Positions 27,945 to 64,000 of a DNA stretch of 64,000 nt are shown in pieces. The position numbers and the translations under genes were made by a program. How positions within the stretch are numbered: position 1 is the first letter of the stretch; every line of letters begins with the position of its first letter. The notes beneath the pieces are model-generated. The model saw only the letters and a program-made list of their open reading frames with translations. It had not been told where the DNA came from and made no database searches. Origin of the DNA: Candidatus Nanoarchaeia archaeon (GTDB taxonomy: Archaea; Nanobdellota; Nanobdellia; Woesearchaeales; JANQNC01); assembly GCA_028279745.1 (NCBI GenBank), contig JANQNC010000001.1:594154-658153 (forward strand), written 5' to 3'.

Positions 27945-28646
27945 ATGAAAGTAAGCTCAGGAAATGAAGCAATTGATAGATTATTGGAAGGGGGGGTTGA
28001 GACAGATGTGATAACTACTGTCTATGGGCCTGCTGGTTCAGGTAAGACAAATATTGCTTTGATAATGGCAGTCAAAGCTGTTTCATCTGGCAAAAAAGTT
28101 GTGTTCATCGATACAGAAGGTGGTTTTTCTATTGAAAGGTTAAAACAGGTCTGCCATGACTATAAGAAAGTACTTGATCAGGTGTTGTTTTTCAAACCGA
28201 CTTCATTCAAAGAACAAAATAATGCGATCGATAAGTTGAAAGGGATACTTAATAATAAGATTGGGTTAGTAATAGTTGACTCAATTGCTCATCTGTATAG
28301 GATCGAGATGGCTGAAAAAGAAGCAATCTATTCTGTAAACAAAGCGATGGGGAAGTCGATTGGGATATTGACTGAAGTTGCCAGACTGAATAAAGTTCCA
28401 GTTTTAGTTACAAATCAAGTTTATTCTGCATTTGATGAAAGAGAGAAAGTAAATATGGTGGGTGGAGATTTACTTAAGTATGGAAGCAAATGTTTAGTTG
28501 AGTTACAGAAAACACCTGAGGGCAATAGAAGGGCTGTTCTTAAGAAACATCGGAGTCTTGCTGAAGAGAAAGACATCGTGTTTAGGATAGTCAATGATGG
28601 GATAAAGGTTACAAAAGAAGGTAAAGGTTTTGGTTTGTTTAAGTAG
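27945..28646 (+). CDS. radB: RadB (RadA paralog, KaiC/RecA-fold ATPase)
   Basis: The 233-aa product lacks an N-terminal HhH domain. Walker A reads GPAGSGKTN. It also carries VVFIDTEGGF and a Walker B VIVDS. Confidence 0.85.
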   Translation: MKVSSGNEAIDRLLEGGVETDVITTVYGPAGSGKTNIALIMAVKAVSSGKKVVFIDTEGGFSIERLKQVCHDYKKVLDQVLFFKPTSFKEQNNAIDKLKGILNNKIGLVIVDSIAHLYRIEMAEKEAIYSVNKAMGKSIGILTEVARLNKVPVLVTNQVYSAFDEREKVNMVGGDLLKYGSKCLVELQKTPEGNRRAVLKKHRSLAEEKDIVFRIVNDGIKVTKEGKGFGLFK

Positions 28647-30057: not shown

Positions 30058-30276
30058 ATGATGGATGAGTATGGGAACGAAATAGAGACTTCTAAAATAT
30101 TTATACCTATCTCGATCTTCGAAGATAGAAGACTTTCTGCATTAGAATCAATCGTTGAATATCTCAAAGAAAAAAGACATCTAACACTACACCAAATTGG
30201 AGTCATGCTCAACAGAGATGACAGAACAATCTGGACAACATACAACAGAGCAAAACAGAAGAGGAAGAAAAGATGA
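30058..30276 (+). CDS. small HTH DNA-binding protein (sigma-70 region 4/LuxR-like helix)
   Basis: The 72-aa product carries LTLHQIGVMLNRDDRTIWTTYNRAKQKRKK, which resembles L..EIA..LG.S..TV..R..RA. It overlaps the next gene by 4 nt. Confidence 0.5.
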   Translation: MMDEYGNEIETSKIFIPISIFEDRRLSALESIVEYLKEKRHLTLHQIGVMLNRDDRTIWTTYNRAKQKRKKR

Positions 30277-42668: not shown

Positions 42669-43178
42669 ATGGAAGACATACACAATAAATGGCCCCACAG
42701 ATGGGTAAATTCAAAAGCAGCATCTGAAAACTCTAAACTGCATGGTCTTGGGGTATTCGCTAAAGAAGAAATAAAAAAAGGAGAACTAATCTGCATTCTT
42801 GGAGGAGTTATAGTTCCCAGTTCTGAAATTAAAGAATACTGGGGCAAGATGAGTCATGTGGGGATACAGATCCACGAGGACTTTTTTATGGTTCCCACAA
42901 CAAGAGAAGAGTTAGAACAAAACGGTGTATTTAACCATTCTTGTGAACCAAATATCGGCTTCTTGGAGGATATCCAGTTTGTAGCAATAAAAGATATACA
43001 ACCTGGAGAAGAGTTGGTTTTTGATTACGCATTTAGCGAAACTTTAATGGACCCTTTTGAATGTAAATGCGAGTCTGACAAATGTAGGAAAACAATAACT
43101 TCTAACGACTGGAAAATCAAAGAAATACAAACAAAATATAAAAAATACTTCTCTCCTTATTTAAGAAGAAAAATTTAA
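42669..43178 (+). CDS. SET-domain protein (lysine methyltransferase)
   Basis: It carries GLGVFAKEEIKKGELI, NHSCEPN, GEELVFDY and a post-SET Cys cluster CKCESDKC. It lies 9 nt downstream of the giant gene. Confidence 0.8.
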   Translation: MEDIHNKWPHRWVNSKAASENSKLHGLGVFAKEEIKKGELICILGGVIVPSSEIKEYWGKMSHVGIQIHEDFFMVPTTREELEQNGVFNHSCEPNIGFLEDIQFVAIKDIQPGEELVFDYAFSETLMDPFECKCESDKCRKTITSNDWKIKEIQTKYKKYFSPYLRRKI

Positions 43179-46137: not shown

Positions 46138-47100
46138 TTAAAGGTCCTTAATTCCAAGCTCTTCAATCATGAAGTTGCACTCAGCATCTGGCAAGTTTGG
46201 TGCGTCAACAAGTTTTGCAACTCTTGAGCCTTTCTTACCTTTTCTCAGATAAATCCTGAATGTTGAGTTATGACCAACAATATGTCCTCCGATAGCTTCA
46301 GTAGGGTCACCAAAGAATTGATCTGGCTTTGACATAACTTGGTTTGTAACGATAACACAAACGTTATACATCTGAGCAACTTTAGCTAAGTCATGCATGT
46401 GCTTGTTTAGTTTTTGTTGCCTATCCGCTAGTGTTCCTCTACCCACAAACTCAGCTCTGAAGTGAGATGTTAATGAGTCTACTACTAACACTTTTACGTT
46501 AGTTCCACTCTTGATTAACTCTTCAGCTTTGCTAACTAATAACATCTGATGATCTGAATTGTAAGCTCTAGCAACCTTAACGTTTTTTAGAACTTCATCA
46601 GGATCTAAGTTTGCACCTTCTGCAAATTGTTTGATTCTTTCAGGTCTAAAGCTGCCTTCAGTATCAATATAGATCGTTTCTGATTCAGGATCTTGAAGCT
46701 GAGCAGTTACTGCAATTAAGTGTGCTATTTGAGTTTTGCCCCCACCATAAGGAGCGTAAAGTTCTGTGATAGACCCAGTTTCAAAACCACCACCCATGAT
46801 ATCGTCAAAACTTTGACTTGATGTGGATAGTTTAACTATTAACTCTCTCTTCTTAAGAAGTTCATCTCCTGATTCGAAACCCATCTCCAATGCGTCTCTT
46901 GCAGAAGATATCATCTTTCTTGCAGTTGATTCTGTAACGCCCGCAGCGTCTACCATCTTTCCAGGAGTAGATACAGCAATGCTCATTAAGTTGTCAAAAC
47001 CTGCTCCGACAAGTTTCTCAGCAGTTGCAGCCCCTACACCAGGCAATTCTTGAATTTGTTGTGCTTCAGTCATATTATCACCTTTTTTTTCTTTTTTCAT
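46138..47100 (-). CDS. radA: DNA repair and recombination protein RadA
   Basis: It has an N-terminal HhH (ELPGVGAATAEKL), Walker A (GGGKTQ) and VLVVDSLTSHFRAE. Confidence 0.9.
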   Translation of the reverse strand: MKKEKKGDNMTEAQQIQELPGVGAATAEKLVGAGFDNLMSIAVSTPGKMVDAAGVTESTARKMISSARDALEMGFESGDELLKKRELIVKLSTSSQSFDDIMGGGFETGSITELYAPYGGGKTQIAHLIAVTAQLQDPESETIYIDTEGSFRPERIKQFAEGANLDPDEVLKNVKVARAYNSDHQMLLVSKAEELIKSGTNVKVLVVDSLTSHFRAEFVGRGTLADRQQKLNKHMHDLAKVAQMYNVCVIVTNQVMSKPDQFFGDPTEAIGGHIVGHNSTFRIYLRKGKKGSRVAKLVDAPNLPDAECNFMIEELGIKDL

Positions 47101-51083: not shown

Positions 51084-51920
51084 CTATTTAAAGAAAAATA
51101 AGACCTTCTTAAAGAATATCAAAATTAGGATAATCACAACAATTGCAACCAGTAATAAAGTAGTCAGATTAAAACCGAATTTAAAAATACGTTTACTCTT
51201 AATATTTTCTGGATTTTGAAACAAATCTGAAACTTCTGATCCAGTCAGAACTCTGTCCCAAATCGCAGCTTCATCGATTAATCCTTTAAACGCATGAAAA
51301 TTATCCCAAGGCTGAGCACCAAAGTTTAAGTCTAAGTCTGGAGACTTTCTCCAACCATTGCCTGTTGATGAGTTGTCTTCAATCTTACCATTAACAAAAA
51401 GTTGGGTTCCTTCAGAAGTATCCCAAGTTATAGTTATATGATACCATTGGTTTAATAGAACCTCTGTAGTTGATATTAGTTCTGTTGGTGTGTTATCTTT
51501 CATCATGTGAAAATGGAATCTATTGTCCTTCTCTTCTCCACCTACAGAAACATATTCATAATCACCATACCTGCCGATAAACCTTGGCGAATCATTTTTG
51601 TTAGAGTTATAGCTCATAGGGTAAACCCACATAGAAATAGAACCCCTTTCCATATTATCCATATTGTTTAGCTTGTTGTTAAACCAAATCTTTTCTCCAT
51701 TACCCCCAAATCTTATTGATCCACCCACTTTACCGTTAGGCTCATACCTTGCACCTGAAGAAAGAACTGCGTTGATTGAACCCCAATCATCTCTTACTGG
51801 ATCAAACCTGCCGTCAAAACTCCAATAGCCAACTAAACCTTCTTCATGATCAAGAGGGTCTGCACTGACTAAGCTTATTGTGACTAATAATAGTAGTGTA
51901 AAAGTAAATAGTTTATTCAT
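51084..51920 (-). CDS. LamG/concanavalin-like domain surface protein with C-terminal TM anchor
   Basis: It has a signal peptide. LVGYWSFDGRF...GGSIRFGGNGEKIWF is typical of a LamG jelly-roll. The C-terminus has a hydrophobic helix and a basic tail. Confidence 0.55.
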   Translation of the reverse strand: MNKLFTFTLLLLVTISLVSADPLDHEEGLVGYWSFDGRFDPVRDDWGSINAVLSSGARYEPNGKVGGSIRFGGNGEKIWFNNKLNNMDNMERGSISMWVYPMSYNSNKNDSPRFIGRYGDYEYVSVGGEEKDNRFHFHMMKDNTPTELISTTEVLLNQWYHITITWDTSEGTQLFVNGKIEDNSSTGNGWRKSPDLDLNFGAQPWDNFHAFKGLIDEAAIWDRVLTGSEVSDLFQNPENIKSKRIFKFGFNLTTLLLVAIVVIILILIFFKKVLFFFK

Positions 51921-51955
51921 AAGTGAGCATCTTAGTGCATTTTATAAAAATGTTT

Positions 51956-53248
51956 CTAAAGAAATGGTGCAATGTCTTTCTGTTTAGGTATATGATTAAT
52001 GAAATAAATGTGTCTAAAGGAAGGGTGAGAGTAAAGTTTAATTCTACCCGAAACTTTGTACTCCAAGACATCTTCACCATGTATCTTGCACGGCTTCTTT
52101 TTCATCTGTCTTGCACCATTAAGTATGTTGCCATCGCAAAAACTCTCAAGATGAGATATGCAATGCTCCCAAGTCTTAGCAGAGTCTGTTGCATTTGTGA
52201 CTAAAGTAACGATGGGGTAATGATAGTCTGCACTACGGTCTAGTGCATTGTCAGTTACAATAACCGAGTAATAATTATCAATATCAAGTTTCTTACATAT
52301 GTCTGTGTAGATTTTACCCATAATAAGTTTTGGTTTGTTTGTTTTATTCACAAAATTTAGATCAAATGTATTTACACCTAATTTTTTACAAACCCCCTCA
52401 AACACATCATCAAGAGTGAGATTCTTAAGATTTAGCTCGCCATCAAAGGTTTCAATATCACACCCCATCATGTTCAGCAAGTCCCTATGCTTCGCCATCA
52501 CTTTAGGACGTCTTCCTTTATTCAAACTTTTAATATATGAACTGAACCCCTTAGTTAATTCAGCCAGGTGTTCATCCATTTTTTCACTTAGTAACGGAAT
52601 GTATTTTCGATTCATGACCTCCAACGTCATATGTTCACGTGCATTCGCTATTAGAGGGACCGAGTATGCGGCATCAAATAAATCCCTAAACCTTCTTTTT
52701 GCAGTATCATATTTTGTGGTTCTACTGCCCCAATCAAAAGTTGCTGAAGAGATTATAGTTGAGTACTTTCGTTTTCCCCTTTTCTTTTTATATGTGTTAA
52801 CAAAATTAAATAATCCTTTTCTAAGATTGTTGCTTATTTCACAAGTGTCATCCCAGTCTAAGAAAATAGCTGTTTTATTCTCATTGGTCTGTTCGTGAGA
52901 TTTTGAAATAGAATAAGATCCAACAATACTCCACTCCCTCATCGCTTTTTTCGCAGACTCTTCTACACTTAACCCACTTTTTTTCTTATTGGTGACACAG
53001 TAATAAAAGAAAGCCACATTGAGCTTGGACCTTGCAAGGAAATGTTTATAGATACTTTCAAGTTTTTCTACAGGAAGTCTGCAGTTGTACTTAACTTCTT
53101 TACTCCCATCAAAAAGTTCTGTAAAAACACCTACTGCTTCCATAGGGTGCATCTCAATCTTATCCTTAAAGAGGTTGTCACTATCTACATGGTTGACTTT
53201 GTTAAAAAAAGCCTCATATTCCTCAATAAACTGCTCTAAGTTTGCCAT
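51956..53248 (-). CDS. hypothetical cytoplasmic protein (430 aa)
   Basis: A long ORF with no recognised family. It carries a GS...(about 20 aa)...DWDD segment. Confidence 0.35.
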   Translation of the reverse strand: MANLEQFIEEYEAFFNKVNHVDSDNLFKDKIEMHPMEAVGVFTELFDGSKEVKYNCRLPVEKLESIYKHFLARSKLNVAFFYYCVTNKKKSGLSVEESAKKAMREWSIVGSYSISKSHEQTNENKTAIFLDWDDTCEISNNLRKGLFNFVNTYKKKRGKRKYSTIISSATFDWGSRTTKYDTAKRRFRDLFDAAYSVPLIANAREHMTLEVMNRKYIPLLSEKMDEHLAELTKGFSSYIKSLNKGRRPKVMAKHRDLLNMMGCDIETFDGELNLKNLTLDDVFEGVCKKLGVNTFDLNFVNKTNKPKLIMGKIYTDICKKLDIDNYYSVIVTDNALDRSADYHYPIVTLVTNATDSAKTWEHCISHLESFCDGNILNGARQMKKKPCKIHGEDVLEYKVSGRIKLYSHPSFRHIYFINHIPKQKDIAPFL

Positions 53249-53406: not shown

Positions 53407-55425
53407 TTAAGGGAAAAGCCTTACTGAGAAAGAATCCAAATCATATAGTTGGTTGCCAAACTTGTCAACGCCAACAACAGCGAAATGATAAATCTTGCCT
53501 TCAGTTTCAGTTAAAGAAACTTGTATAGGTTTGTAATATGTCTTGGTTTCCTTGTCAAAATAGAAAACATCTGGATGAGTTACCATATCTGATTCAGTTG
53601 TTGCATCTTGAACAGTTGAAAGAACAAGTTTTTCCTCCCTAAAAGCATCACTAACTTTCTTAAGATCAACAAGAGGCTTGTAATAAACAACATAGTGATC
53701 TATATCAGGGGAAGGACTTTGCTTAAATGATAGCAGTGCTGTTCTTGGAATTGTTTTAGGAAAACTAACTTCTATTGCAGGAGGTGGTGAAGAGTCATTA
53801 ATGTACAAAGCAAAGTTAATTGACACATTCTGTATTCCTTCTGATGTTAAAACTTCATTGTAAGTTGGGATACACATCTTAAAGGTTCGATCATCAAGCC
53901 TGCATTCGTTATCAACAGAGTTAACACTTGATAAAATATTATTTTCTTTATGGACTACAAGCTTGTCTTCAACATCAGAGATGAAAAGATTAGAGATGAA
54001 ACCTCGTTGAACATTTTCAATATCCGTAATCTCTATCTGTTGATTTGCTAAGACTGCAAAAGTCTTTGAACCATTTTTTATTATTTCAAACTCACTACCT
54101 TCAACAAAAATCTCACACTCACAACCATCATCTTTTGAATTTAAGCAAGAGTCAAGCTGTTCTCTGAAAGATCGTAATGGATCTAGTTTGTCACACTGAT
54201 AAGACATTTGCCAGCCATTAAAAGCAGCTTCGTTAGCTACACACTCACTAAGAGCATAAGAGTCTGTTACTGTCAGATCTTGTTTTGAGTTACATGTATC
54301 TGATAGCTGTTTTGCCAATCTTACATAAGCAGAGTAGTTTAATGAGGATTTTTCAAAAGGAATATTGAAGTAAGGCATCCTTGAATATAATCCAACAGTC
54401 CCGAATGTTGTCTCGACATCTCTCCCCAATGATTCTTGCAATGCGTTGAAAGGGTTTACAGCTCTTCCGTTGTACTGATCTTGATAAATTCCAAAATGCA
54501 AGTGGGGTTGAGTGTTATCAGGAATTCCGCAAGTGTTTCCTGGTTTAGTGGAGTCGCAATCAGTGTAACATCCTAAATTATCACCTACCGTGCCAAGAAT
54601 TTCGCCAGCGTTAATTGTATCTCCAACTCTCCAAACTCTGTCTTCATCAGTGTTAATACCATACTTCTCTAAATGAGCATAATAGAAATAGTTGCCTTCA
54701 CTATCTCTTACGCCTATCCTATTACCACCCCATTCATTACACCCTATCCGTTCAATCCTTCCTGAGACTGATGCTATTACAGGTGTACCCATAGGTGCAA
54801 AAATATCTGTGCCTTCGTGAAGTCTTCCGCCGGGCCTTTCATAACCCCAATCGTTCTCAAAATAATATTTTTCTTTAACCGGGAAATATTCTAGTTTGCC
54901 ATCATAGAAAGCACCTTGACCAACCTTAACTGTTATAGGTGCGACAGGAGTTGCTAGAATTCTGTCTTCTGTAATGTTTATCTTATAGTTATTTTTCTTT
55001 AACCTGAAGTTAGCCTCGTAAATATCCAAAGGACTGTTAAGGTTATTGTTGAATATTGATACAAAATTGTTTGGAATATTATCTAAGTTGTAAACCGTGG
55101 ATTCGTTTGACCATAATGTGAAACCATAATAACTATTTTCCATTTCTGCACTGCCGCCCTGATTTCCCAAATCATACAATGATTGCTGAGATGAAATAAC
55201 TGCAGAATCTGTAATGTAGTTTACTGCTTTCTCAGCATCTGCATATCTGTTAAAAAGATCTACCTGTCTCTCTCCAACATACCCATCTTGAACATAATCA
55301 AACTGTTTTACAGAAAGAACCCTATAACTTGCAATCATAAAAACCAAGAATCCCAAAACTAGGAAAAGATTGAAAAATTGGGATTTCTTATTTAACATTT
55401 TAGTTATACCTCTGCAACTCAACAT
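53407..55425 (-). CDS. M23 family metallopeptidase (LytM/lysostaphin-like) with pilin-like N-terminus
   Basis: It has the HxxxD motif (LHEGTDIF) and the HxH motif (PHLHFGIY). The N-terminus reads MLNKKSQFFNLFLVLGFLVFMIAS (basic, then hydrophobic). It is the last gene of the pilin-like operon and overlaps the upstream gene. Confidence 0.75.
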   Translation of the reverse strand: MLSCRGITKMLNKKSQFFNLFLVLGFLVFMIASYRVLSVKQFDYVQDGYVGERQVDLFNRYADAEKAVNYITDSAVISSQQSLYDLGNQGGSAEMENSYYGFTLWSNESTVYNLDNIPNNFVSIFNNNLNSPLDIYEANFRLKKNNYKINITEDRILATPVAPITVKVGQGAFYDGKLEYFPVKEKYYFENDWGYERPGGRLHEGTDIFAPMGTPVIASVSGRIERIGCNEWGGNRIGVRDSEGNYFYYAHLEKYGINTDEDRVWRVGDTINAGEILGTVGDNLGCYTDCDSTKPGNTCGIPDNTQPHLHFGIYQDQYNGRAVNPFNALQESLGRDVETTFGTVGLYSRMPYFNIPFEKSSLNYSAYVRLAKQLSDTCNSKQDLTVTDSYALSECVANEAAFNGWQMSYQCDKLDPLRSFREQLDSCLNSKDDGCECEIFVEGSEFEIIKNGSKTFAVLANQQIEITDIENVQRGFISNLFISDVEDKLVVHKENNILSSVNSVDNECRLDDRTFKMCIPTYNEVLTSEGIQNVSINFALYINDSSPPPAIEVSFPKTIPRTALLSFKQSPSPDIDHYVVYYKPLVDLKKVSDAFREEKLVLSTVQDATTESDMVTHPDVFYFDKETKTYYKPIQVSLTETEGKIYHFAVVGVDKFGNQLYDLDSFSVRLFP

Positions 55426-55897
55426 AAGCAGTCTTATTTATTGAAACAGGAACATAAGCGTCAACTGAAGTTGTTGGCGTACCACCAGCACCAGCACCAG
55501 AACCTGCAAAACGATCAGGATACCCTTTTTTTTCGTAAATACTTATTTCGTATCCTACTTCAATCTCATTACTTCCCTTTTTGTAAATATAGATTGCTGA
55601 AGACAGCGCTTCGGTTGTCTTATTGTCAAGAATTCCTCTTAATGATCTATCGTTATAGGTTAAGGCAATCAACTCAGACATCTTAATTGTTTTATTGTTT
55701 ACATCAACGGGCGTCCTAAGATAGTTAAGCAATACTAAGTTGGATGAAACCTCATTTGCTTTGCCCTCAATAGCGACTTCTCCCCTGTCACCTTGAACTG
55801 TAAACAAGACAAAGAAAACTGCTGCAATAGACACAAATGCAAGTATTGAAAATGTGTCAAGGTAAACATTTCCCGCCCAAAGTCCTTTCCTATTCAA
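55400..55897 (-). CDS. pilin-like/class III signal peptide protein
   Basis: MNRKGLWAGNVYLDTFSILAFVSIAAVFFVLF. It overlaps the M23 peptidase gene. Confidence 0.4.
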   Translation of the reverse strand: MNRKGLWAGNVYLDTFSILAFVSIAAVFFVLFTVQGDRGEVAIEGKANEVSSNLVLLNYLRTPVDVNNKTIKMSELIALTYNDRSLRGILDNKTTEALSSAIYIYKKGSNEIEVGYEISIYEKKGYPDRFAGSGAGAGGTPTTSVDAYVPVSINKTAYVELQRYN

Positions 55898-56417
55898 CTT
55901 CTACCACCACATCTAAATCTAATCTTCCCTTCTCAAGACTATTGTCTTTATGATACAAAATATAATATGACTTCTGAATATTTTCATACTGCTTGAAAGA
56001 AGTCAGAGGAATCCACCTATCATACCACAACTTATTGAAGTAAGAAGTCGAGATTATATTGTTGTTTTCATCTACTAACTCCCCTTTGAAAGCAATCAAA
56101 GGTTGTTGTCTTGCGGTATAGTTAAAGGCTTTTGAAAGTCTATCGTTGAGCACTGTTTCGTTGCTGAAGTATTGATAGTCTATGATGCCCGGGTGACAGA
56201 TCTCATCACAGTAAGTAAAACCATTATTGCTAAATAAGACTCTTGAAACCATAATCTCAGATTCTGCCTTGGCAGTATCAAATGCGATAGTGAAAAAAGA
56301 GCTTATGAAAAAAATAACAACAAAGACAACAATAGCAAGGAAAATAAAATTAAGAATAAGGTTTGGTTTTTTGAATCCAAGCAACGCTTTCTTATCCATA
56401 ATACTCCCCCACTGCAT
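55890..56417 (-). CDS. pilin-like membrane protein
   Basis: MDKKALLGFKKPNLILNFIFLAIVVFVVIFFI. Confidence 0.4.
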   Translation of the reverse strand: MQWGSIMDKKALLGFKKPNLILNFIFLAIVVFVVIFFISSFFTIAFDTAKAESEIMVSRVLFSNNGFTYCDEICHPGIIDYQYFSNETVLNDRLSKAFNYTARQQPLIAFKGELVDENNNIISTSYFNKLWYDRWIPLTSFKQYENIQKSYYILYHKDNSLEKGRLDLDVVVEVE

Positions 56418-57363
56418 TCTTAACTTTCAGAGCAAATTCTTTTCTTTTTTCTAAGTTGTTATATGGGAAGTCCTTGCTGACTTCTACCATAACTGAAACA
56501 TCTGATTTACTGTTCTTTATGAAAGATTTTTCAGTGATAGTTATGTCCCCTTTGTCCAATTCATCCATTTCAGAAAATTCGTTGATCAAAAGACAGGCAA
56601 ACTTCTTGTTCTTTAACGAATCATCTTTGATCTGGATATTAACTTTGTCTTCTTCAGTCAGAACGAAAGAAACTGTAAACGCTTTGTCTTGAGTAATACT
56701 TAACCGCGTAGTTTCAGAAACTTCCACATTATCATTCCGAGTCATAAAAACAGGATCAGGGATAAGTTGTGATTTAACTGCATTAGCTAAAATCCAAGTC
56801 ACATTAGCTTCACGATTCTGCTCAATAACCATGCCTGGGAAACTACCTTGGTAAGAAGGATCTAAAACGACACCTTCCTTTTCTTTTCTGAAATTCTTAT
56901 TTAGTGCTTCTGCGCAACCTAGTCTGTCTGATACGAATTTTATCTCTCCACCACTTATTGAAAGTGTGTTTGATGATTTTTTGAAGCTGATATCTGAATT
57001 GTTTATGAGATTTAGATGAGTGTAAGCTACAGATTGTTCTAGATTAGAATCAGACACGTAGGGAAAACTTATTCCATTAACGGGTTCTTTAAAGAAAATA
57101 GTTGCTTTCCCACCTTCAAAGCTAGCGCTGAAATTATTTATCCTGCCAGTGTAAATATAATTTACATCACCTGGTGCACCATATATGGATGTGGTCATCA
57201 AACCTACTTCCTTAGCAAGATAAATCTTATCAAACAAAATATCATTCTTAATATCACTAAGTTTAACTGAAAAAGAGATAAAAACAGTAAGAACTAACGC
57301 AATTTCCATCAAAACCCACAACATACTATGGGTTTGTGCTCTTTTACCTAACCCCTTTTTCAT
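56392..57363 (-). CDS. type IV pilin-like protein (class III signal peptide)
   Basis: MKKGLGKRAQT/HSMLWVLMEIALVLTVFI. Confidence 0.5.
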   Translation of the reverse strand: MKKGLGKRAQTHSMLWVLMEIALVLTVFISFSVKLSDIKNDILFDKIYLAKEVGLMTTSIYGAPGDVNYIYTGRINNFSASFEGGKATIFFKEPVNGISFPYVSDSNLEQSVAYTHLNLINNSDISFKKSSNTLSISGGEIKFVSDRLGCAEALNKNFRKEKEGVVLDPSYQGSFPGMVIEQNREANVTWILANAVKSQLIPDPVFMTRNDNVEVSETTRLSITQDKAFTVSFVLTEEDKVNIQIKDDSLKNKKFACLLINEFSEMDELDKGDITITEKSFIKNSKSDVSVMVEVSKDFPYNNLEKRKEFALKVKNAVGEYYG

Positions 57364-57403
57364 ATATACAATATTATATTACCGTGTTTATAAATGTTAT
57401 TCC

Positions 57404-58003
57404 TTAAGAAGAGAAAGTCAGAGTTATAATCTCGTTAGATTCCTTCTTATTAATCATGAACTCTTGACTGCCGAAATCAGATGTAGGATAAAGAATAAAA
57501 TTCAAGTTTCCTGATGATTTGTAATCTTTAGCATTACTGAAGAATTTTGTCAAATCTTTATTTACAACAAATACAACCTTCTTATTGTAACCAACACAAT
57601 CAATAGGATCTTCAAACCTACGATCATTTTGCTTGAAGTAACACAGACAAGATTCCTGCAGACCACAAAGCAAAGGTTTAGGCAAGAAATCATCGACAGT
57701 TCTTGAAGAAGGACAGTCATTATCAAACTTATCATTACAATCATAAGAATAAGCAACAACTTTCACACTATTATCAAAACTGACAATTAGTGAGGAAGTG
57801 AGTTCTTCTTCTGACCTAATCAACTCATCAACATTTGTTGAGAGCCTATCAAAATTATTCTTAGAAAGCTCTGATACTTTACTTCCAAAAAAGAAATCAT
57901 AGATCCCTCCAAATAAAGGAGTGAAAATCCCTAAAAGAATAACTGCAAAAATAGCCAAACCTATAACCGTTTCAGTAGGAATCTTAATACCTTTCTTATT
58001 CAT
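57404..58003 (-). CDS. type IV pilin-like protein
   Basis: MNKKG/IKIPTETVIGLAIFAVILLGIF. The start was taken at the internal Met. The ORF track extends to 58075. Confidence 0.5.
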   Translation of the reverse strand: MNKKGIKIPTETVIGLAIFAVILLGIFTPLFGGIYDFFFGSKVSELSKNNFDRLSTNVDELIRSEEELTSSLIVSFDNSVKVVAYSYDCNDKFDNDCPSSRTVDDFLPKPLLCGLQESCLCYFKQNDRRFEDPIDCVGYNKKVVFVVNKDLTKFFSNAKDYKSSGNLNFILYPTSDFGSQEFMINKKESNEIITLTFSS

Positions 58004-58004
58004 T

Positions 58005-58214
58005 TTAACCAAAGTTCTGACATTCAGGCAAACCAGGATTATTAATACAAGTAGAAAGATTTGTAATAGTCTCATTTTTAGGAGTTAAACCCGCAATGTT
58101 TTGTAAAACGTTACCAATCTGTTCTCTAAAAACCCATGCCATCAACGCAAGAAACAATAAAGCTAGGATAAACATAACCATCCAAAACTGAAGTTCTGCT
58201 CTCTTATCCATCAT
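58005..58214 (-). CDS. mini pilin-like protein (69 aa)
   Basis: MMDKRAE/LQFWMVMFILALLFLAL. It has 2 C-terminal Cys. Confidence 0.45.
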   Translation of the reverse strand: MMDKRAELQFWMVMFILALLFLALMAWVFREQIGNVLQNIAGLTPKNETITNLSTCINNPGLPECQNFG

Positions 58215-58217
58215 ATA

Positions 58218-58505
58218 TCACCCAAATATAGGAATGCAACACTGTCCATCTTTGTCTTGATCTGTTGTTGTGCCAACATATTTACAACCAGGAGTCAGAA
58301 GAACTGTTTCGTTTGAAGCGCACCTCTTATCATCCTTATCATCCATACATGTACCTTTCTTAGCCTCACAACTGTTCAAGCCCTGTGAAAATCTTCCAGA
58401 CTGAGTTGAAAAAATCCAACCTATAACCACTAAAGCAATCAAAGCTAAGACTGCGATAACAATAACGTTAATGGGCATTCCCTGCCCATTCTTAGAAAAA
58501 AACAT
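58218..58505 (-). CDS. small Cys-rich pilin-like protein (95 aa), candidate major pilin
   Basis: MFFSKNGQG/MPINVIVIAVLALIALVVIG. It has 6 C-terminal Cys. It is a paralog of the next gene. Confidence 0.55.
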   Translation of the reverse strand: MFFSKNGQGMPINVIVIAVLALIALVVIGWIFSTQSGRFSQGLNSCEAKKGTCMDDKDDKRCASNETVLLTPGCKYVGTTTDQDKDGQCCIPIFG

Positions 58506-58509
58506 TTGT

Positions 58510-58800
58510 TTACTCTCCTATCTTAAGACAACAGTACTGCGGTTGATCATCCACATTTCTACAGTTAAGTCCTGTTGTGTCTCTTATGTATCCGTCAATC
58601 AAATCCCCATCTGCGCTTGTCTGACATCCAGAATCAGTCGTACAGATGTAGTTTCCCGGCTGGCTTTCACAATCACTAACTTGTGTGCTAAAGAAACCTA
58701 ACCTTGACATGAATATAACACCAACTACAACTAAAACAAGCATAACCAAAATAGCGATGATAATAACATTCATCGGCAAACCTTGAGCTTTTTTATCCAT
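58510..58800 (-). CDS. small Cys-rich pilin-like protein, candidate major pilin
   Basis: MDKKAQG/LPMNVIIIAILVMLVLVVVG. It has 6 C-terminal Cys. The start is placed at the ATG. The ORF track extends to a GTG at 58809. Confidence 0.55.
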   Translation of the reverse strand: MDKKAQGLPMNVIIIAILVMLVLVVVGVIFMSRLGFFSTQVSDCESQPGNYICTTDSGCQTSADGDLIDGYIRDTTGLNCRNVDDQPQYCCLKIGE

Positions 58801-58856
58801 GATAATCACCTCTCTAATAGTATATGAAAAATGGCAATGTTAGTTTATAAAGGTTT

Positions 58857-59579
58857 CTACTTATTCAGACTATCTATATACTTAACTCTAGAATCTACAT
58901 CAGAAGTTCTTGAAGAGATAAAAACTTCAGTGTAACCAGTTAGTTTAGTTTTTTGCACAAACAGCTCAAGTCTTGATCCAAATTCTGGTTTATTCGTTCC
59001 GCCAGTGCCGCCATTAAAGATCACAAGATAAGTTAAAGGATCTTGACCAACTCTCACGCCGTGATTAAAAGGGTCTTCAGGAGATGCTCTGAAATTAATA
59101 TCACCATCAAAAGTTATACATGAATCAACAATAAAATTGTCATTGTGGTCATCACCTTCAAAAGTGTCACCCCAACCATCATCCTCATAGTTACAAATAC
59201 ATGCTTTGTCTCCGCATTCAGCAGGTTTAGGAATCTTAAAATTCTTATCAGCATCAGTTGTGCCCCCACTAGGACAGAGATTAGGAGATGAGGCTAGACA
59301 TCTGGTGTCAAAACCAACCATGGCAGTCTCTTTATCAAGCCAGAACTCATCAATAGACCTGTAAGATTCATCTTTATCATCTGTCAAAAGAGAGTTAATC
59401 GTGGTTCTTAGGTTTATGATATCTGTGGTTTTCTTTGTTGCATTCTCATCATTAAAGAAGTTAAATTTCCCAGCTAACTCTCTTATCTTTCCAGGACCTA
59501 TCGCAATTGAAACTATCAAAAGAAAAATCATCAAACCTGCAAAAACCAGCTGCCAACTTAAAGCTCCTTTTTTCATCAT
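58857..59579 (-). CDS. type IV pilin-like protein (240 aa)
   Basis: MMKKGA/LSWQLVFAGLMIFLLIVSIAIG. Confidence 0.5.
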   Translation of the reverse strand: MMKKGALSWQLVFAGLMIFLLIVSIAIGPGKIRELAGKFNFFNDENATKKTTDIINLRTTINSLLTDDKDESYRSIDEFWLDKETAMVGFDTRCLASSPNLCPSGGTTDADKNFKIPKPAECGDKACICNYEDDGWGDTFEGDDHNDNFIVDSCITFDGDINFRASPEDPFNHGVRVGQDPLTYLVIFNGGTGGTNKPEFGSRLELFVQKTKLTGYTEVFISSRTSDVDSRVKYIDSLNK

Positions 59580-59734
59580 CCACCACCAAAAGTAAGAGTT
59601 TCGGCAATCTTTTCTATGCCTCTACCGATCTGATCACGGAAAAAGAACAAAACAATAAGCAAGACAACTAATAAGATAATTACATAAATCCACTTACCCA
59701 ATTTGTCCCACATATTCTGTGCTTTTTTATTCAT
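59576..59734 (-). CDS. micro pilin-like protein (52 aa), not in ORF track
   Basis: Manual translation gives MNKKAQN/MWDKLGKWIYVIILLVVLLIVLFFF... It overlaps the downstream gene by 4 nt (ATGA). Confidence 0.45.
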   Translation of the reverse strand: MNKKAQNMWDKLGKWIYVIILLVVLLIVLFFFRDQIGRGIEKIAETLTFGGG

Positions 59735-59772
59735 AATAACCCTCTTAGTCTTCTTATTATATAAAATTTGTC

Positions 59773-60555
59773 TTAATCAATTCTTCTTTGTTTTACTAAC
59801 TCTTCACAACCAATCTCAGACATGTGATCATAAGGACTTACAAACACCTTATACTCTGCTTCTGCAATCCCTGTAGCTTCAGCAAACTTTTTAGGAGCGT
59901 AACCCATCAAAACAACAGCGTAGTCATTATTCTCATGACCAGCATCTATCAAACCATCCATAGTGTAAAATACTTGTTCAGTGTAAACATTAGCAATCTT
60001 ACTGACATCAATTCTCTCAATAAACGGTTCATCTAAAGGAAACGCTTTGACGAATTTTCCACTATAACGTTTGTCTGTGTAATTCAAAAAAGCCTCTTTC
60101 TCCAAAACATAAGTTTCATCACCTGAGAGCTCAGTTATCTCATCAAAATTAACAATAAAACGAGAACAGACAAAACAATAAAAATCATTAGTCAAGATAT
60201 GGTTCTCAAAAGGATCTAGTTTTCCTTCACCGAACTGGACCCAGCATTCTCTCATCAAAGGAGTTATTTGGTTTAATAGCTCTTCGGTCTGTTTTTCAGC
60301 GTCCTTTTCTTTAACAGTAAGGTTTTCCCTCCAGTTAGTTTCACACATCAAAGGAACGTTAGTGCCGGAAACAAAATAAGAAAGCAAACTTCCCTGTTCT
60401 TTATCCATCGCTTGAATTGTCGCTAAACAAGAAGCTGCCTTCTGACCAGAAGGGTAAAGAACTTTTCCAGAAAGCTGAACGAAAAATATTACAAAAATTA
60501 GTACTGCAACTCCAAAAACCCACCATAAAACCTTATTTGCTTGTCCTTTTCTCAT
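59773..60555 (-). CDS. type IV pilin-like protein (260 aa)
   Basis: MRKGQA/NKVLWWVFGVAVLIFVIFFV. Confidence 0.5.
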   Translation of the reverse strand: MRKGQANKVLWWVFGVAVLIFVIFFVQLSGKVLYPSGQKAASCLATIQAMDKEQGSLLSYFVSGTNVPLMCETNWRENLTVKEKDAEKQTEELLNQITPLMRECWVQFGEGKLDPFENHILTNDFYCFVCSRFIVNFDEITELSGDETYVLEKEAFLNYTDKRYSGKFVKAFPLDEPFIERIDVSKIANVYTEQVFYTMDGLIDAGHENNDYAVVLMGYAPKKFAEATGIAEAEYKVFVSPYDHMSEIGCEELVKQRRID

Positions 60556-60558
60556 CTT

Positions 60559-61440
60559 CTAGTTATGCATGTAATAACAGACATTCCCCACATTAGTAAC
60601 CTCATCAGGCAAACCTTTAGTTCCTTGCACAGTTTCAGTTATATCAAAACTGCTAAGTATTAATCTATCAGTTCCAATCCAGATAGAAGAGACAAACTCT
60701 TCATCATTCAAATCTGTATCAACATTAATGACAAAACCAAAAAAGTCTTTTCCTATAATGAAAGCTTCATTAACAGTATTACCTAAAAGCCTGTATTCAT
60801 AAACTGTATTGTCTCTTGTGGTTAACACCAGAGGATTGTTGTCTCTTTTTGCCTGTAATAGTTTATCCCAATAACCTTTCTTATCCACTTTCCAAAGTAC
60901 TGAGTAGTTTTCAGAGGTGTCAACAACAGCGAGATCATTCAAATCCATAAACTGCTGAACTAAAACCCCAGATGCAGTGTGCTGAGTCATACGATCGAAA
61001 AAATAATCTGTCTTGGAACCAGGAACAAAATTATAGGTAGACCAATAAGGGATTTCCCTTATCTTTTCTTCCTTTTCAAAGTAAAGCTCAGAACACACCA
61101 AACAGTTAGACTTACCTCTATACCTATCTTGTATGTAAGGGTTTTGTTCACCAAAACCAACACCATTAGTGCAACTTACTAATCTTGTCAAAATCTTCTT
61201 CTTCAACTTATCAATATCATCAAAATCAGTCTCCTTGTAATTTGTGGGTTTTTCCCTAGGACAGTTTAGTTCTCCCTTCCCCTGTGAAGATAAAGCAATC
61301 TGCGCAGTACAAAGACTGGACGTTCTTGTCCTGTCAAAAAAGTTAACAATACCTATCGTGATTATAAGAAGAACTATCGCAATACTAACAAGCAAGATAA
61401 GATTCTTTATCGTGTTCATGCCCTGTGCTTTTTTGTTCAA
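60559..61440 (-). CDS. type IV pilin-like protein (293 aa), TTG start
   Basis: (M)NKKAQG/MNTIKNLILLVSIAIVLLIITIG. With the TTG start at 61440 the N-terminus matches the family pattern. An alternative ATG lies at 61419. Confidence 0.5.
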   Translation of the reverse strand: MNKKAQGMNTIKNLILLVSIAIVLLIITIGIVNFFDRTRTSSLCTAQIALSSQGKGELNCPREKPTNYKETDFDDIDKLKKKILTRLVSCTNGVGFGEQNPYIQDRYRGKSNCLVCSELYFEKEEKIREIPYWSTYNFVPGSKTDYFFDRMTQHTASGVLVQQFMDLNDLAVVDTSENYSVLWKVDKKGYWDKLLQAKRDNNPLVLTTRDNTVYEYRLLGNTVNEAFIIGKDFFGFVINVDTDLNDEEFVSSIWIGTDRLILSSFDITETVQGTKGLPDEVTNVGNVCYYMHN

Positions 61441-61559
61441 CTTAACCCTCCTGCTGTGAGAATCCTTCTCACCACTATAAATGCAATTATCATAAATATC
61501 AAAATAGAAACAATAATTATTATGGGATTAATTCCAACTTCTTCTCCTTTTTTATCCAT
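61437..61559 (-). CDS. micro pilin-like protein (40 aa), not in ORF track
   Basis: Manual translation gives MDKKGEEVG/INPIIIIVSILIFMIIAFIVVRRILTAGGLS. A GGAGGTG Shine-Dalgarno-like sequence lies 8-14 nt upstream. Confidence 0.45.
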   Translation of the reverse strand: MDKKGEEVGINPIIIIVSILIFMIIAFIVVRRILTAGGLS

Positions 61560-61560
61560 T

Positions 61561-62028
61561 TTATCTACACACCTCCAAATATAAAGTAAGCAATGAACCA
61601 TATGTGGTTCTTAAAGGTTGGTAAGCGTTTTCTCGTTCACCACGACAGCCACTATTAATACCAACAGGTAAACTTTCTCCATCCACGTCTGCCTCAAACA
61701 CAAAACTCCTGTCCTGCACAGTGAGTGTTTTATCTAAAATATAAGCAATCGTACGGTTGACATAAGAGCAACTGTGCTCGTTATCACAAACTATTGCACC
61801 CCTAGTAGCACAATCAAGCAACAAGTCCTGAATATTAAGGCCTCTGCAAGTAGTAGTTGTGTACTGCAATGAATTTAAGGTAGATGAAGCAACAACACTT
61901 GTCGTAACTCTTTGCTCAAGCTCTGACTGAGGTCTCAAAACAACAAAAGCAATGAAAAACAGCAGACCTACCGCTATCAAAATCACAACAACAACCATAC
62001 CCATAACTTCTGTCTGTGCTTTCTTCAT
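61561..62028 (-). CDS. type IV pilin-like protein (155 aa)
   Basis: MKKAQT/EVMGMVVVVILIAVGLLFFIAF. Confidence 0.5.
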   Translation of the reverse strand: MKKAQTEVMGMVVVVILIAVGLLFFIAFVVLRPQSELEQRVTTSVVASSTLNSLQYTTTTCRGLNIQDLLLDCATRGAIVCDNEHSCSYVNRTIAYILDKTLTVQDRSFVFEADVDGESLPVGINSGCRGERENAYQPLRTTYGSLLTLYLEVCR

Positions 62029-62029
62029 C

Positions 62030-62509
62030 TTAACCCGTCCTAATCGTAATCAAACCCATGTGATACTCATCCTCAATAGGATACCATAATGAAACTGGAA
62101 TAAACGAGGCAGTTCCTATCGTTGTTCTGTTGTATAAAATACGGGACCAATTTCCAGGATAAACCTCTTCAACAATCACAAGACTGTTTCCTAACTCATC
62201 ACTATAATAAATTCTGTTAGTGCCATTAGCCATAACTTCTGATAACGATTCCAGTTTCAGTACATCAATGCAAGTAAAAACATCATCTCCCCCACCACAC
62301 TGAAGCTCAGGTAAAAAGAGAAGCTTTTGCATGTTCTCAATAGCTTTCAAATCTCTATACTTTTTAATATCTTCTTTGGCACTTCCAACTTGAATGTTAG
62401 CATAAAAAACTAACCCGATCACTAGAATGAAAAAGAAGACTATTAAAACCATCATCGTCTCCATCATTTTCATCTGTGCTTTTCTCATTTTCAATAAACC
62501 AACGGACAA
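62030..62509 (-). CDS. type IV pilin-like protein (real start probably Met at 62488: MRKAQM...)
   Basis: MRKAQM/KMMETMMVLIVFFFILVIGLVFYA. Confidence 0.5.
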   Translation of the reverse strand: MSVGLLKMRKAQMKMMETMMVLIVFFFILVIGLVFYANIQVGSAKEDIKKYRDLKAIENMQKLLFLPELQCGGGDDVFTCIDVLKLESLSEVMANGTNRIYYSDELGNSLVIVEEVYPGNWSRILYNRTTIGTASFIPVSLWYPIEDEYHMGLITIRTG

Positions 62510-63546
62510 GACTGCCTTCTAATATAATTATCCTGATACGAGTCAAGACTTAAAGCATTAGTTGTTAACGTGTCCCTTACAGAAGGACTGTAACCTAAAC
62601 TTGCAGTCACAATCATCTCATCAATAATTGAGTCAGGCTGGAAATAATAATCACGGCAGTACTCAGGAGCAAGATTTGGGTTTTGTTGAAGCTTTAACAT
62701 CCTGTTCTTGTACACTTGAGCAACTATGCTGAATGTATTTAACGCTTTATTCATGTTGCAATCATAAGTATCTTTAGAATCTGCAAATATAGCAGCATAC
62801 ATGGTGGCTTCAGAATCAGAATCAGTGCCGAAGAAAGGGGATGTGCCTTCAGAAACTAAAGATTCCTGATCCATTACATAAAAATTAACATTGTAAGGTG
62901 GAGAAGATGTTATGCTTACTGCCCTGACATCAGGGTCAGCAAAATTATAAAAACGAGACAGATCAAGATTTTGGATATTGTTATCACAATCAAAACATAC
63001 AATCTTAATCTTATAACCACTACTTATGTCAATAGTATCAACACTGTTCTCATCAACCAAATCAACATTCAAAAACTTGTTAGCCATACGCTCATAAACA
63101 TCATTAGTCAAAAGCGAGTTGGTGTTAGTGTCAAGAATAACATATTTTGCATCAGGACTTGTGATAAACAAAAGATTTGTGACCTTAAATGGAATGCTCC
63201 AAGGCATGCTCCACAATAACATAGTCCTGCCTTTAACACGGTCAGGAGTAAAAATGGCCCGGTAGTTAATGCTTTCAGACACTCCCTTGAGCCTATAATC
63301 CTCACAGCTGAAAAAGATTTCTAAATCATGAAGGTTAAGCTCGGCAGCACTTCCCCCGCTAACTCTTGCAGAAGTAATCTTAGTCTCTAAATCTTTAATT
63401 AAGGAAGCGCTAAGCTTCTGTTCAGAAGCTTCCCTCTGCTGCAAAACAAAAACAACAAAGAAAGAAAGGATTATTGCTCCAGCTACTAAAACAAACATCC
63501 AGTTAAACTGTATCTCTATCGCACCCTTCTTCCTCATTCTTCCCAT
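62491..63546 (-). CDS. type IV pilin-like protein (351 aa)
   Basis: MGRMRKKGA/IEIQFNWMFVLVAGAIILSFFVVFV. Confidence 0.5.
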   Translation of the reverse strand: MGRMRKKGAIEIQFNWMFVLVAGAIILSFFVVFVLQQREASEQKLSASLIKDLETKITSARVSGGSAAELNLHDLEIFFSCEDYRLKGVSESINYRAIFTPDRVKGRTMLLWSMPWSIPFKVTNLLFITSPDAKYVILDTNTNSLLTNDVYERMANKFLNVDLVDENSVDTIDISSGYKIKIVCFDCDNNIQNLDLSRFYNFADPDVRAVSITSSPPYNVNFYVMDQESLVSEGTSPFFGTDSDSEATMYAAIFADSKDTYDCNMNKALNTFSIVAQVYKNRMLKLQQNPNLAPEYCRDYYFQPDSIIDEMIVTASLGYSPSVRDTLTTNALSLDSYQDNYIRRQSCPLVY

Positions 63547-64000
63547 TCTGTAACCTTAACTCCTCCTCTAACACCCTCAAACTGGAGCTCCACATAGCCA
63601 CTAATAACTTCAGAACAGAAATAGTAAGGATGTTCAAGCTTTACCTTGCCAACTGACTCAGCAGAAACAACACCATCACTGTCTATAAGAAACAGATTAG
63701 TGTTTGATTCTCTAAGCTCTGGAGATATATCGGGGCCAGAAGGCCTAATACTAATTTCATCAAGAATCAAAGGGTAATCTGAGGTAATTATTCCACCTGA
63801 ATCAGTATCTGCACTTACAAAAGTGTTATAGTTAACTTCATAATCAACTAAACATACCGCTGAGTAGTCTGAAGGAACCTTGTATTCTACCTGGTCAATA
63901 CTCCTAAATCTAGTTCCATCAACAGCATTCGACACACCATTAACAAATCTAGTGTACAAAATCTTATCTTGGTTCTCAAGCTGTTGACCAACAAACCTAA
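63534..64000 (-). CDS. 3' part of a further operon gene (open to window end; 5' end beyond 64000)
   Basis: The frame stays open through base 63998. The track's first residue is a TTG codon. The gene overlaps the downstream gene by 13 nt. Confidence 0.4.
   Translation of the reverse strand, partial: RFVGQQLENQDKILYTRFVNGVSNAVDGTRFRSIDQVEYKVPSDYSAVCLVDYEVNYNTFVSADTDSGGIITSDYPLILDEISIRPSGPDISPELRESNTNLFLIDSDGVVSAESVGKVKLEHPYYFCSEVISGYVELQFEGVRGGVKVTEWEE

Follow-up and report, generated by a model that had tools for sequence, protein, structure and literature searches.

Unannotated pilin-like gene clusters conserved across Woesearchaeales, with a leader-bearing M23 metallopeptidase in one subclade

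We analyzed a 64,000-nt stretch of DNA (hereafter, the window) from a Candidatus Nanoarchaeia archaeon of the Woesearchaeales (GenBank assembly GCA_028279745.1, contig JANQNC010000001.1, positions 594,154 to 658,153), one end of which is occupied by a long run of genes whose products begin with a short basic leader and a hydrophobic helix. This gene run is real and non-random. Its products are probably divergent class III signal peptide proteins of the EppA/PibD type, assembled by type IV machinery encoded elsewhere, and the system is best filed as a lineage-wide variant of the archaeal type-IV-pilin-like systems, without demonstrated membership in a curated pilin family. The run had first been described as a pilin operon in a prediction made from the sequence alone (hereafter, the original prediction).

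Results

An uninterrupted gene run with a common N-terminal design

From position 55400 to the window edge at 64000, the minus strand carries an uninterrupted run of open reading frames (ORFs), 15 of them complete genes and one cut by the end of the window, in keeping with the at least 16 consecutive genes originally predicted. After gene starts were re-set to the methionine preceding (D/N/R)-K-K, 12 junctions measured -8 to +6 nt and three measured 38-56 nt; the overlaps and tiny gaps that had been described for the whole run therefore hold at 12 junctions but not at the other three. A Shine-Dalgarno-like motif was present 8-14 nt upstream of 11 of the 16 starts, and NCBI's own gene call (P0025) agrees with the start of the 96-amino acid (aa) protein. 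The operon had also been expected to run on past 64000. We inferred the sequence beyond the edge from the syntenic locus of a 58%-identical relative (L001), which bears the expectation out. The full-length L001 ortholog of the truncated sixteenth gene (184 aa) starts MRDMRKAQISGQVFVYIMAIIIAGLVLMF and so fits the leader design; the start of the truncated gene must fall ~90 nt past 64000. At its other end the run is adjoined by a gene for an M23 metallopeptidase, whose product begins MLNKKSQFFNLFLVLGFLVFMIA and has the same leader-plus-helix design, giving a set of 17 genes.

The common design consists of a basic leader of 4-5 residues, a small residue (G/A), often Gln, and then an uncharged helix of 18-32 residues. 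All complete cluster proteins have a single hydrophobic segment, which is N-terminal, and none elsewhere. [KR]-[G/A] stands ahead of the helix in 14 of the 15 complete genes, with N-G in the 95-aa protein; in the M23 protein the pair is K-S. Six proteins (those of 96, 52, 260, 293, 155 and 152 aa) have Gln immediately after the small residue, or eight if the N-G-Q of the 95-aa protein and a second site, R-A-Q, in the 323-aa protein are included. The original prediction had given every gene one exact N-terminal motif, which was right for the basic and small residues in 14 of 15 genes but overstated for the Gln. Defined as [KR][G/A/S] with a strongly hydrophobic 15-mer no more than 12 residues later, the design occurred in 14 of 16 cluster ORFs and, elsewhere in the window, in 7 of 51 (Fisher p = 1e-7).

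We called genes (crudely) in 84 fetched related loci and clustered the proteins into families. Across families, position -2 was K/R in ~100% of proteins and position -1 was G/A/S in ~100%, and a K-K-[G/A/S]-Q junction was conserved in at least seven families with unrelated heads. The conservation extends into the helix. Family fam3 has Gln at +1 and Glu at +6, five residues past the Gln, each in 100% of its members; fam2 has Gln at +1, Glu at +3 and Gly at +6, each in 97%; and fam1 has the N-terminal consensus [G/A]-x-I-E-I-Q-F-N-W, with Glu at +3. Gln at +1 was also found in 95% of fam7, 83% of fam5 and 71% of fam0, and the close family of fam0 has an invariant Asn at +6. Once the helix was removed, the heads of the core families (below) were unrelated at profile level and only three split-orthogroup pairs merged; a hidden common origin of these families was sought in head-only profile comparisons, which gave none. 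Conservation of K-K-[G/A/S]-Q with an acidic residue in the helix start is not expected of passive membrane anchors, and type IV pilin-like proteins are defined by this very architecture of one conserved N-terminal module on unrelated heads. The pilin-style N-termini of the original prediction thus stand, as a conserved module of basic leader, small residue, often Gln, and long uncharged helix.

These N-termini form a class distinct from the Sec signals of the window. The ordinary Sec signals elsewhere in the window have a short h-region and a small-x-small site, often with a C-terminal anchor; examples, with a slash at the cleavage site, are MNKLFTFTLLLLVTISLVSA/D in a LamG protein (VSA/D), MKKASVLFAVLFSISLAYA/L in a 177-aa protein (AYA/L) and the signal of a 3332-aa giant (VDA/V). 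A Sec class I signal would have an h-region of ~7-15 residues and a small-x-small site, and the stretches of the cluster proteins run to 18-32 residues with no such site.

The module is conserved and syntenic in relatives

A profile search with the fam1 anchor protein, run on a collection with one genome per GTDB species, gave 316 matching stretches confirmed by tblastn, and an exhaustive HMMER search gave 2,137 representative clusters (1,091 with E <= 1e-30) of proteins of ~330-390 aa, none annotated. The anchor (~351 aa, position 0) was present in 80 of 80 loci. It was followed by fam3 at position +1 (~165 aa, 67 loci) and fam2 at +2 (~166 aa, 68 loci), and preceded by fam5 at -1 (~170 aa, 49 loci) and, at -2, by fam4, a giant surface protein with a Sec signal (median ~1,446 aa, 59 loci). 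Farther downstream lay the multi-copy, Cys-rich fam0 (~96 aa, 120 copies in 55 loci) and fam6 (~319 aa, 38 loci). The four-gene core, with orthologs of 181, 348, 152 and 155 aa, and the preceding giant were colinear and on the same strand in ~50-80 of the 80 relatives. This colinearity over 80 loci, together with the 316 matches and 2,137 clusters, indicates a module under selection.

Most relatives have only the four-gene core and small subunits, and the long array of 16-17 genes is a feature of a subclade; with our crude gene calling, runs of 10-19 such genes were found in ~10 of 67 untruncated loci. Headless proteins of 38-60 aa, similar to the 40-aa protein of the window, are common in the related clusters. 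The remaining window genes, M23 included, were restricted to close relatives. The L001 locus has the same gene order, ending with M23 and then RPA, and a more distant locus (L085) has ~14 such genes followed by M23 (735 aa), RPA and YdjM.

The fam4 giants combine a Sec signal, Ig-like repeats, Cys/Asp-rich TSP3-like repeats, a Pro/Thr-rich linker and a C-terminal transmembrane (TM) segment with a basic cytoplasmic tail of ~190 aa that is rich in Lys, Arg, Ser and Gln. In L001 the stop of the giant overlaps the start of the first core gene. Still further upstream, relatives carry another pilin-like gene (fam7) or housekeeping genes.

Two side observations concern the relatives. In a distant one (L086, 180-2294, minus strand) small-subunit genes adjoin a gene for a 704-aa double radical-SAM/SPASM protein and a 73-aa ORF, which would fit a peptide-maturation pair. 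Dozens of module-bearing genomes are labelled 'uncultured Methanosarcinales archaeon' (bins from third-party annotation (TPA) co-assemblies), a taxonomy that is probably a placeholder or erroneous. We found no paper describing the module in the literature.

Cysteines and predicted structures of the heads

The heads are extracytoplasmic in character. All 17 proteins have an even number of Cys residues (12, 0, 2, 2, 6, 2, 6, 6, 6, 0, 6, 6, 0, 6, 2, 6 and 2), exactly six in 8 of the 17, and the anchor family has four invariant Cys; this fits oxidised heads outside the cell. In L085 some gene calls gave odd Cys counts, possibly from start-site errors.

AlphaFold modelled the 348/351-aa anchor from a 19-sequence alignment with a predicted local distance difference test (pLDDT) score of 87.3 and a predicted template modelling (pTM) score of 0.83. 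In the model an N-terminal helix of 56 residues (7-62) leads into a beta-rich domain (67-237), and the C-terminal part is a helical bundle; a search of the PDB gave no fold match. For the 96-aa protein the helix at residues 10-45 was predicted with confidence and the head with low confidence (pLDDT 62). In its family, fam0, the N-terminal 35 residues are near-invariant and the head is hypervariable and disulfide-rich, with CC near the C-terminus. By analogy, a conserved N-terminus with a hypervariable head is the classic pattern of a major pilin, which makes fam0 a candidate for that part.

Table 1. Genes of the run and of the adjoining M23 enzyme, with examples of the fam4 giants of relatives. 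Positions are those of the window unless a related locus is named; a slash marks the putative cleavage site.
Position	Strand	Length (aa)	Family	N-terminus	Remarks
63534..64000	-	~170-184; at least 154 in window	fam5		Sixteenth gene, first of the four-gene core
62491..63537	-	348 (351 from upstream ATG)	fam1	MRKKG/AIEIQFNW	Anchor; core
62030..62488	-	152	fam3	MRKA/QMKMMET	Core
61561..62028	-	155	fam2	MKKA/QTEVMG	Core; six Cys
61437..61559	-	40		MDKKGEEVGINPIIIIVSILIF...	Headless; candidate Flp/Epd-like small subunit
60559..61440	-	293	fam6	MNKKA/QGMN	TTG start; six Cys; weak paralogy with 260-aa protein
59773..60555	-	260		MRKG/QANK	FlaFind 1.2 passed
59576..59734	-	52		MNKKAQNMWDKLGKWIYVIILLVVLLIVLFFF...	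Headless; weak PF16982 Flp1_like match
58857..59576	-	239	fam10	MKKG/ALSW	Paralogous with 199-aa protein (E = 9e-6)
58510..58800	-	96	fam0	MDKKA/QGLPMNVIIIAILV	Small, Cys-rich; candidate major subunit
58218..58505	-	95		MFFSKNG/QGMPINVIVIAVLAL	Paralog of 96-aa protein (E = 2e-8)
58005..58211	-	68		MDKRA/ELQFWMVMFILALLF	Small protein; FlaFind 1.2 passed
57404..58003	-	199		MNKKG/IKIPTE	Start at 58003 gives 1-nt gap
56392..57363	-	323	fam16	MKKGLGKRA/QTHS	Weak amidase similarity
55890..56399	-	169	fam17	MDKKA/LLGF
55400..55897	-	165	fam24	MNRKG/LWAG	TTG start
53407..55398	-	663		MLNKKS/QFFNLFLVLGFLVFMIA	M23 metallopeptidase (PF01551); last gene of the operon
L001 675-3437			fam4		Giant, example
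L003 4279-7422			fam4		Giant, example
L006 5476-9057			fam4		Giant, example
L004 215-6739			fam4		Giant, example

An M23 enzyme and a possible amidase carry the same leader

The 663-aa protein matched PF01551 with E = 1.1e-16 (61 bits, cutoff 28.7). Orthologs occupy the same position in L001 and L085 and have the leaders MNRKAQFF and MNKKAYVF, respectively, the latter protein matching PF01551 with E = 1.4e-22. The original prediction had proposed that the M23 enzyme works together with the pilins. Its membership in the set is supported, as all three versions, those of the window, L001 and L085, begin with the shared leader. The 323-aa protein matched PF01520 (Amidase_3) below the cutoff, with E = 6.5e-4 over residues 165-227, and gave a weak CwlD match too; its identity as an amidase is unconfirmed because no relative was found in the PDB. 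A real match would make this protein the second peptidoglycan hydrolase to carry a leader of pilin type.

Nanoarchaeota are prominent for their peptidoglycan hydrolases, M23 enzymes among them, and of all archaeal peptidoglycan hydrolases only 32% have a Sec or Tat signal that is recognised (PMC12352652). In the literature we searched, we found no description of a modular pilin with a peptidoglycan hydrolase as its module.

Searches for assembly machinery and for known pilin families

As the original prediction had stated, the 64-kb window is free of genes for a secretion ATPase, a platform protein and an A24 peptidase, by Pfam scans and by a hydropathy and Walker-A check of the remaining ORFs. 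Nor did we find a secretion ATPase, FlaJ/TadC platform or A24 peptidase within +/-10 kb of the module in the 84 related loci. Neighbours with a Walker-A motif (at least 300 aa) and polytopic neighbours were considered as machinery and proved to be ABC, AAA_14, SecY, ZIP, Vut_1, Yip1, gyrase, MFS and LPG synthase proteins; the polytopic exception was a 379-aa protein with five TM segments in L015, which had no Pfam match. The original prediction had presumed that the machinery lies upstream. This expectation failed because in the relatives the upstream side is occupied by the giant Sec-signal proteins and then by fam7 or housekeeping genes.

We used the FlaFind 1.2 motif, [KRDE][GA][ALIFQMVED][ILMVTAS] plus a hydrophobic segment (PMC4307647), on the N-termini, a check that the original prediction had proposed. 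Eight of the 16 N-termini in the window passed but the other eight failed, with Ser at -1, Asn at -2, or Gly, Asn, Lys, Glu or Trp at +2. The family-wide pass rate was 32-69%, versus 12.5% in other proteins of the neighbourhood.

The Pfam and NCBIfam models gave no significant pilin, archaellin, Class_IIIsignal or N_methyl match for the 17 proteins of the window, and batch Pfam scans of 161 relatives (98 + 63) matched no pilin, archaellin or class III signal model. PF04021 (DUF361/Class_IIIsignal) had no match among the window proteins or the relatives scanned. Only sub-threshold, TM-driven matches of pilin type were obtained for the window proteins (for example TadE, Flp1_like, BasB and ComGE). 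One of these was between the 52-aa protein and PF16982 Flp1_like, at E = 0.0023 and 17.8 bits with a cutoff of 33.5, and a similar sub-threshold match was found in only 4 of 63 similar small proteins. A small-subunit profile searched against PDB sequences hit only the generic TM helices of receptors, and a PDB fold search gave no match to solved pilins, GspK or PilX-type heads included. Neither the bacterial G/F-T-L-I-E N-methylation motif nor the pilin/pseudopilin head fold was found in the cluster. N-glycosylation sequons were not enriched (0.72 vs 0.60 per 100 aa).

Discussion

A divergent class III reading and its rivals

A real fibre made from the cluster proteins is likely. The precursors would insert with the 4-5-residue basic leader in the cytoplasm and the Cys-paired head outside, and a prepilin peptidase of the PibD/EppA type, encoded elsewhere, would cut after G/A/S and usually expose Gln at +1. 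An ATPase and platform of the type IV filament (TFF) kind, also encoded elsewhere, would then extract the mature N-terminal helices from the membrane and bundle them. By analogy, the small proteins of 40-96 aa (three headless, two Cys-rich paralogs) are candidates for the main subunits, and the universally conserved four-gene core, in which three of four families have a conserved Glu near the helix start, is a candidate priming or tip complex such as the bacterial minor pilins and pseudopilins form. The larger lineage-specific proteins, M23 included, may likewise be modular pilins that show adhesive or lytic heads, and the giant ahead of the core in relatives, Sec-exported and C-terminally anchored, is the likely partner adhesin. 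The data show the N-terminal design, its conservation in unrelated families, the synteny, the long predicted helix and the extracytoplasmic character of the heads; that the leader is cleaved, that a filament is assembled, which parts the subunits play and that a host is contacted we infer.

A number of results weigh against this assignment. Assembly genes were absent from both the window and the neighbourhood of the module in relatives, half of the N-termini failed FlaFind 1.2 by the substitutions listed above, and neither sequence models nor fold searches tied the window proteins, the relatives or the small subunits to a known pilin. In addition, many of the proteins have 3-10 polar residues between the putative cleavage site and the hydrophobic core, unlike canonical archaeal pilins, and the conserved Glu is at +3 (fam2 and fam1) or +6 (fam3), not at +5. 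The literature on type IV genes in DPANN archaea is divided. Components of type IV pili are stated to be missing from DPANN genomes (10.1101/2020.05.14.094862), which also speaks against the assignment, whereas FlaI, FlaJ and pilin-like (PilB/PilC-like) genes have been reported in Woesearchaeota (PMC6642349). TFF System 1 and 4A loci have been reported in DPANN (10.64898/2026.04.22.720090), and in Haloferax and Methanococcus it is normal for pilin genes to lie apart from the gene for their ATPase (PMC3875500, PMC4858521).

The main rival is that the proteins are uncleaved signal anchors, bitopic N-in/C-out proteins that remain in the membrane and form an envelope or cell-contact complex with the giant. 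Neither a filament nor type IV machinery would be involved, and the K-K-[G/A/S]-Q-x-E junction would act as a signal for topology, packing or oligomerisation. Such an arrangement would agree with the absence of linked assembly genes, the FlaFind failures, the want of homology to pilin families and the reported lack of pilus components in DPANN (10.1101/2020.05.14.094862), and the giant partner is itself anchored in the membrane by its C-terminal TM segment and basic tail. We nevertheless think it rather unlikely, though to be taken seriously. The small residue with Gln, and Glu, Asn or Gly in the first helix turn, are 97-100% conserved in unrelated families; the recurrent headless proteins of 40-52 aa, which consist of leader, helix and short tail, would have no obvious role; the likeness to EppA substrates is specific (PMC3875500); and PilB/PilC-like genes are on record for Woesearchaeota (PMC6642349).

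The proteins could also be processed class III substrates that sit in a short, envelope-embedded scaffold, a bindosome or pseudopilus that presents the M23 enzyme, the amidase-like protein and the giant. This is a variant of the favoured class III reading. It would account for one leader on many large, functionally heterogeneous heads and for a leader-bearing M23 enzyme in three genomes, it has a precedent in the Sulfolobus bindosome and in binding proteins bearing a class III signal peptide (10.64898/2026.04.22.720090), and the four-gene core recalls, as an analogy only, the four minor pseudopilins of type II secretion. It seems improbable all the same, as the multi-copy small subunits, with their conserved N-terminus and hypervariable head, resemble the major pilins of exposed fibres under diversifying selection, and no Bas-like machinery was found nearby, the NCBIfam BasB match having only E = 0.07. 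Ordinary class I Sec signals, cleaved after the hydrophobic region to release soluble secreted proteins, are hardly credible. A basic n-region and a hydrophobic stretch are generic to Sec, but the uncharged stretch exceeds the length of a Sec h-region and is not followed by a small-x-small site, and residues are conserved before and at its start, not after it. The evident Sec signals of the same genome are short and end in VSA/D, AYA/L and VDA/V, and proteins of 40-52 aa would be removed almost entirely. An origin from a mobile element or virus was rejected, since the operon is flanked by RPA/RadA on one side and by conserved genes of the chromosome on the other, and many genomes share this synteny.

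Comparison with known systems

The closest documented pattern is that of the EppA substrates of Methanococcus maripaludis, which have a leader of 5-13 residues ending in Gly, Gln at +1 and Glu at +5, fall into sizes of 67-76, 130-156 and 200-299 aa, and have their genes at four or more loci (PMC3875500). A leader of 3-4 residues is enough for cleavage by PibD, whereas FlaK needs at least 5 (PMC4307647). Large heterogeneous pilin clusters are known from TFF System 1 (Epd) in Methanococcales, Thermococcales and DPANN (10.64898/2026.04.22.720090; PMC4858521). Our cluster resembles Epd/System 1 (clade 1 of Makarova 2016) in having many heterogeneous pilin genes per operon, the Epd system having an 11-gene cluster with at least five minor pilins; in a short leader that ends in a small residue, with Gln at +1 and an acidic residue near the helix start; in size classes of ~70 aa (headless or small), 130-156 and 200-299 aa; and in pilin genes placed away from the ATPase, in a system reported in DPANN. 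It differs in that no above-threshold match to DUF361/Class_IIIsignal or Flp1_like was found, that the Glu is at +3/+6 instead of +5, that Ser is tolerated at -1 and that leaders are only 4-5 residues long. The locus also has no gene for EppA, an ATPase, a double platform or FleN/MinD, and the cluster is accompanied by Sec-exported surface giants and by an M23 enzyme.

Bacteria have operons of minor pilins and pseudopilins such as FimU-PilVWX-PilY1-PilE and GspH-I-J-K, the latter encoding the four minor pseudopilins of type II secretion. The core resembles them in comprising four conserved, co-transcribed pilin-like proteins of unequal size, one far larger than the others, in lying beside a large Sec-exported non-pilin adhesin (like PilY1) and apart from ATPase genes, and in having a Glu conserved near the mature N-terminus in most, but not all, members. 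In contrast to them, it shows no homology, no N_methyl/GFTLIE motif and no match to a GspK/PilX-type head fold, the envelope is archaeal, and the giant is anchored in the membrane at its C-terminus and carries a basic tail in the cytoplasm. The system is also akin to modular pilins and the Sulfolobus bindosome, in that enzymatic or binding modules, here M23 and possibly an amidase-like domain, stand behind a pilin-type N-terminus; functional domains fused to a class III leader have been described as a concept (PMC8179133, 10.64898/2026.04.22.720090). Archaeal peptidoglycan hydrolases, however, have so far been tied to Sec/Tat or to no recognised signal (PMC12352652).

Other genes of the window

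The window has a GC content of ~35% and encodes RadA, an RPA-type single-stranded DNA-binding protein, an archaeal-type ribosomal protein S2 and AglB/STT3. The last is a 1089-aa protein (13626-16895, minus strand) fused to a C-terminal peptidyl-prolyl isomerase of PPIC type (STT3 E = 2.5e-42; Rotamase_3 E = 2.6e-28). Its gene lies within a glycosylation island at 5-27 kb with GT1, GT2, GT4, PMT_2 and flippase genes and three proteins with 8-10 TM segments and no Pfam match (639-2162, 25055-26389 and 26377-27828).

At 30273-42660 (plus strand), where the AT skew is strongly positive (0.19-0.30), lie a 798-aa ORF and the 3332-aa giant ORF, both with Sec-type signals and with essentially no Pfam domains, only a weak RecX_HTH1 match at the C-terminus. 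This giant is distinct from the one ahead of the pilin-like core in relatives. It is adjoined by a gene for a SET-domain protein (42669-43178, plus strand; E = 3e-16). A short RadA paralog (RadB-like, 233 aa; 27945-28646, plus strand) is present besides the full RadA at 46138-47100. Between M23 and RPA, at 51084-53248 (minus strand), are two genes that are absent from this place in L001 and L085 and look like a lineage-specific insertion; they encode a 430-aa protein with no signal and no Pfam match and the 278-aa LamG protein (Laminin_G_3 E = 4e-23), which has a Sec signal and a C-terminal anchor.

Significance

Woesearchaeota are among the most abundant uncultured DPANN archaea, and to our knowledge neither their hosts nor their means of attachment are known. 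The module is a concrete, lineage-wide candidate for a contact apparatus of Woesearchaeales, in a group of archaea for which the literature disagrees on whether type IV pili are present at all. None of its families carries an annotation. It supplies targets in the form of candidate major subunits, a four-protein core as a possible tip complex, and the neighbouring giant adhesins. The pilin-type leader of the M23 enzyme suggests peptidoglycan-walled bacteria as the partners of at least one subclade, and such a leader may explain why most archaeal peptidoglycan hydrolases are without a recognised Sec or Tat signal (PMC12352652). Ser at -1 and Gly or Asn at +2 depart from FlaFind, which suggests that current predictors under-call DPANN class III signals.

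A bolder proposal, which we hold to be doubtful, is that Woesearchaeales possess a surface apparatus of some ten or more unannotated pilin-like families with giant adhesins, and that in one subclade it carries a leader-bearing peptidoglycan endopeptidase, making a 'weaponised' type IV filament or pseudopilus that attaches to the wall of a bacterial host and opens it locally. In a more radical variant, the apparatus may assemble with no canonical type IV ATPase or prepilin peptidase.

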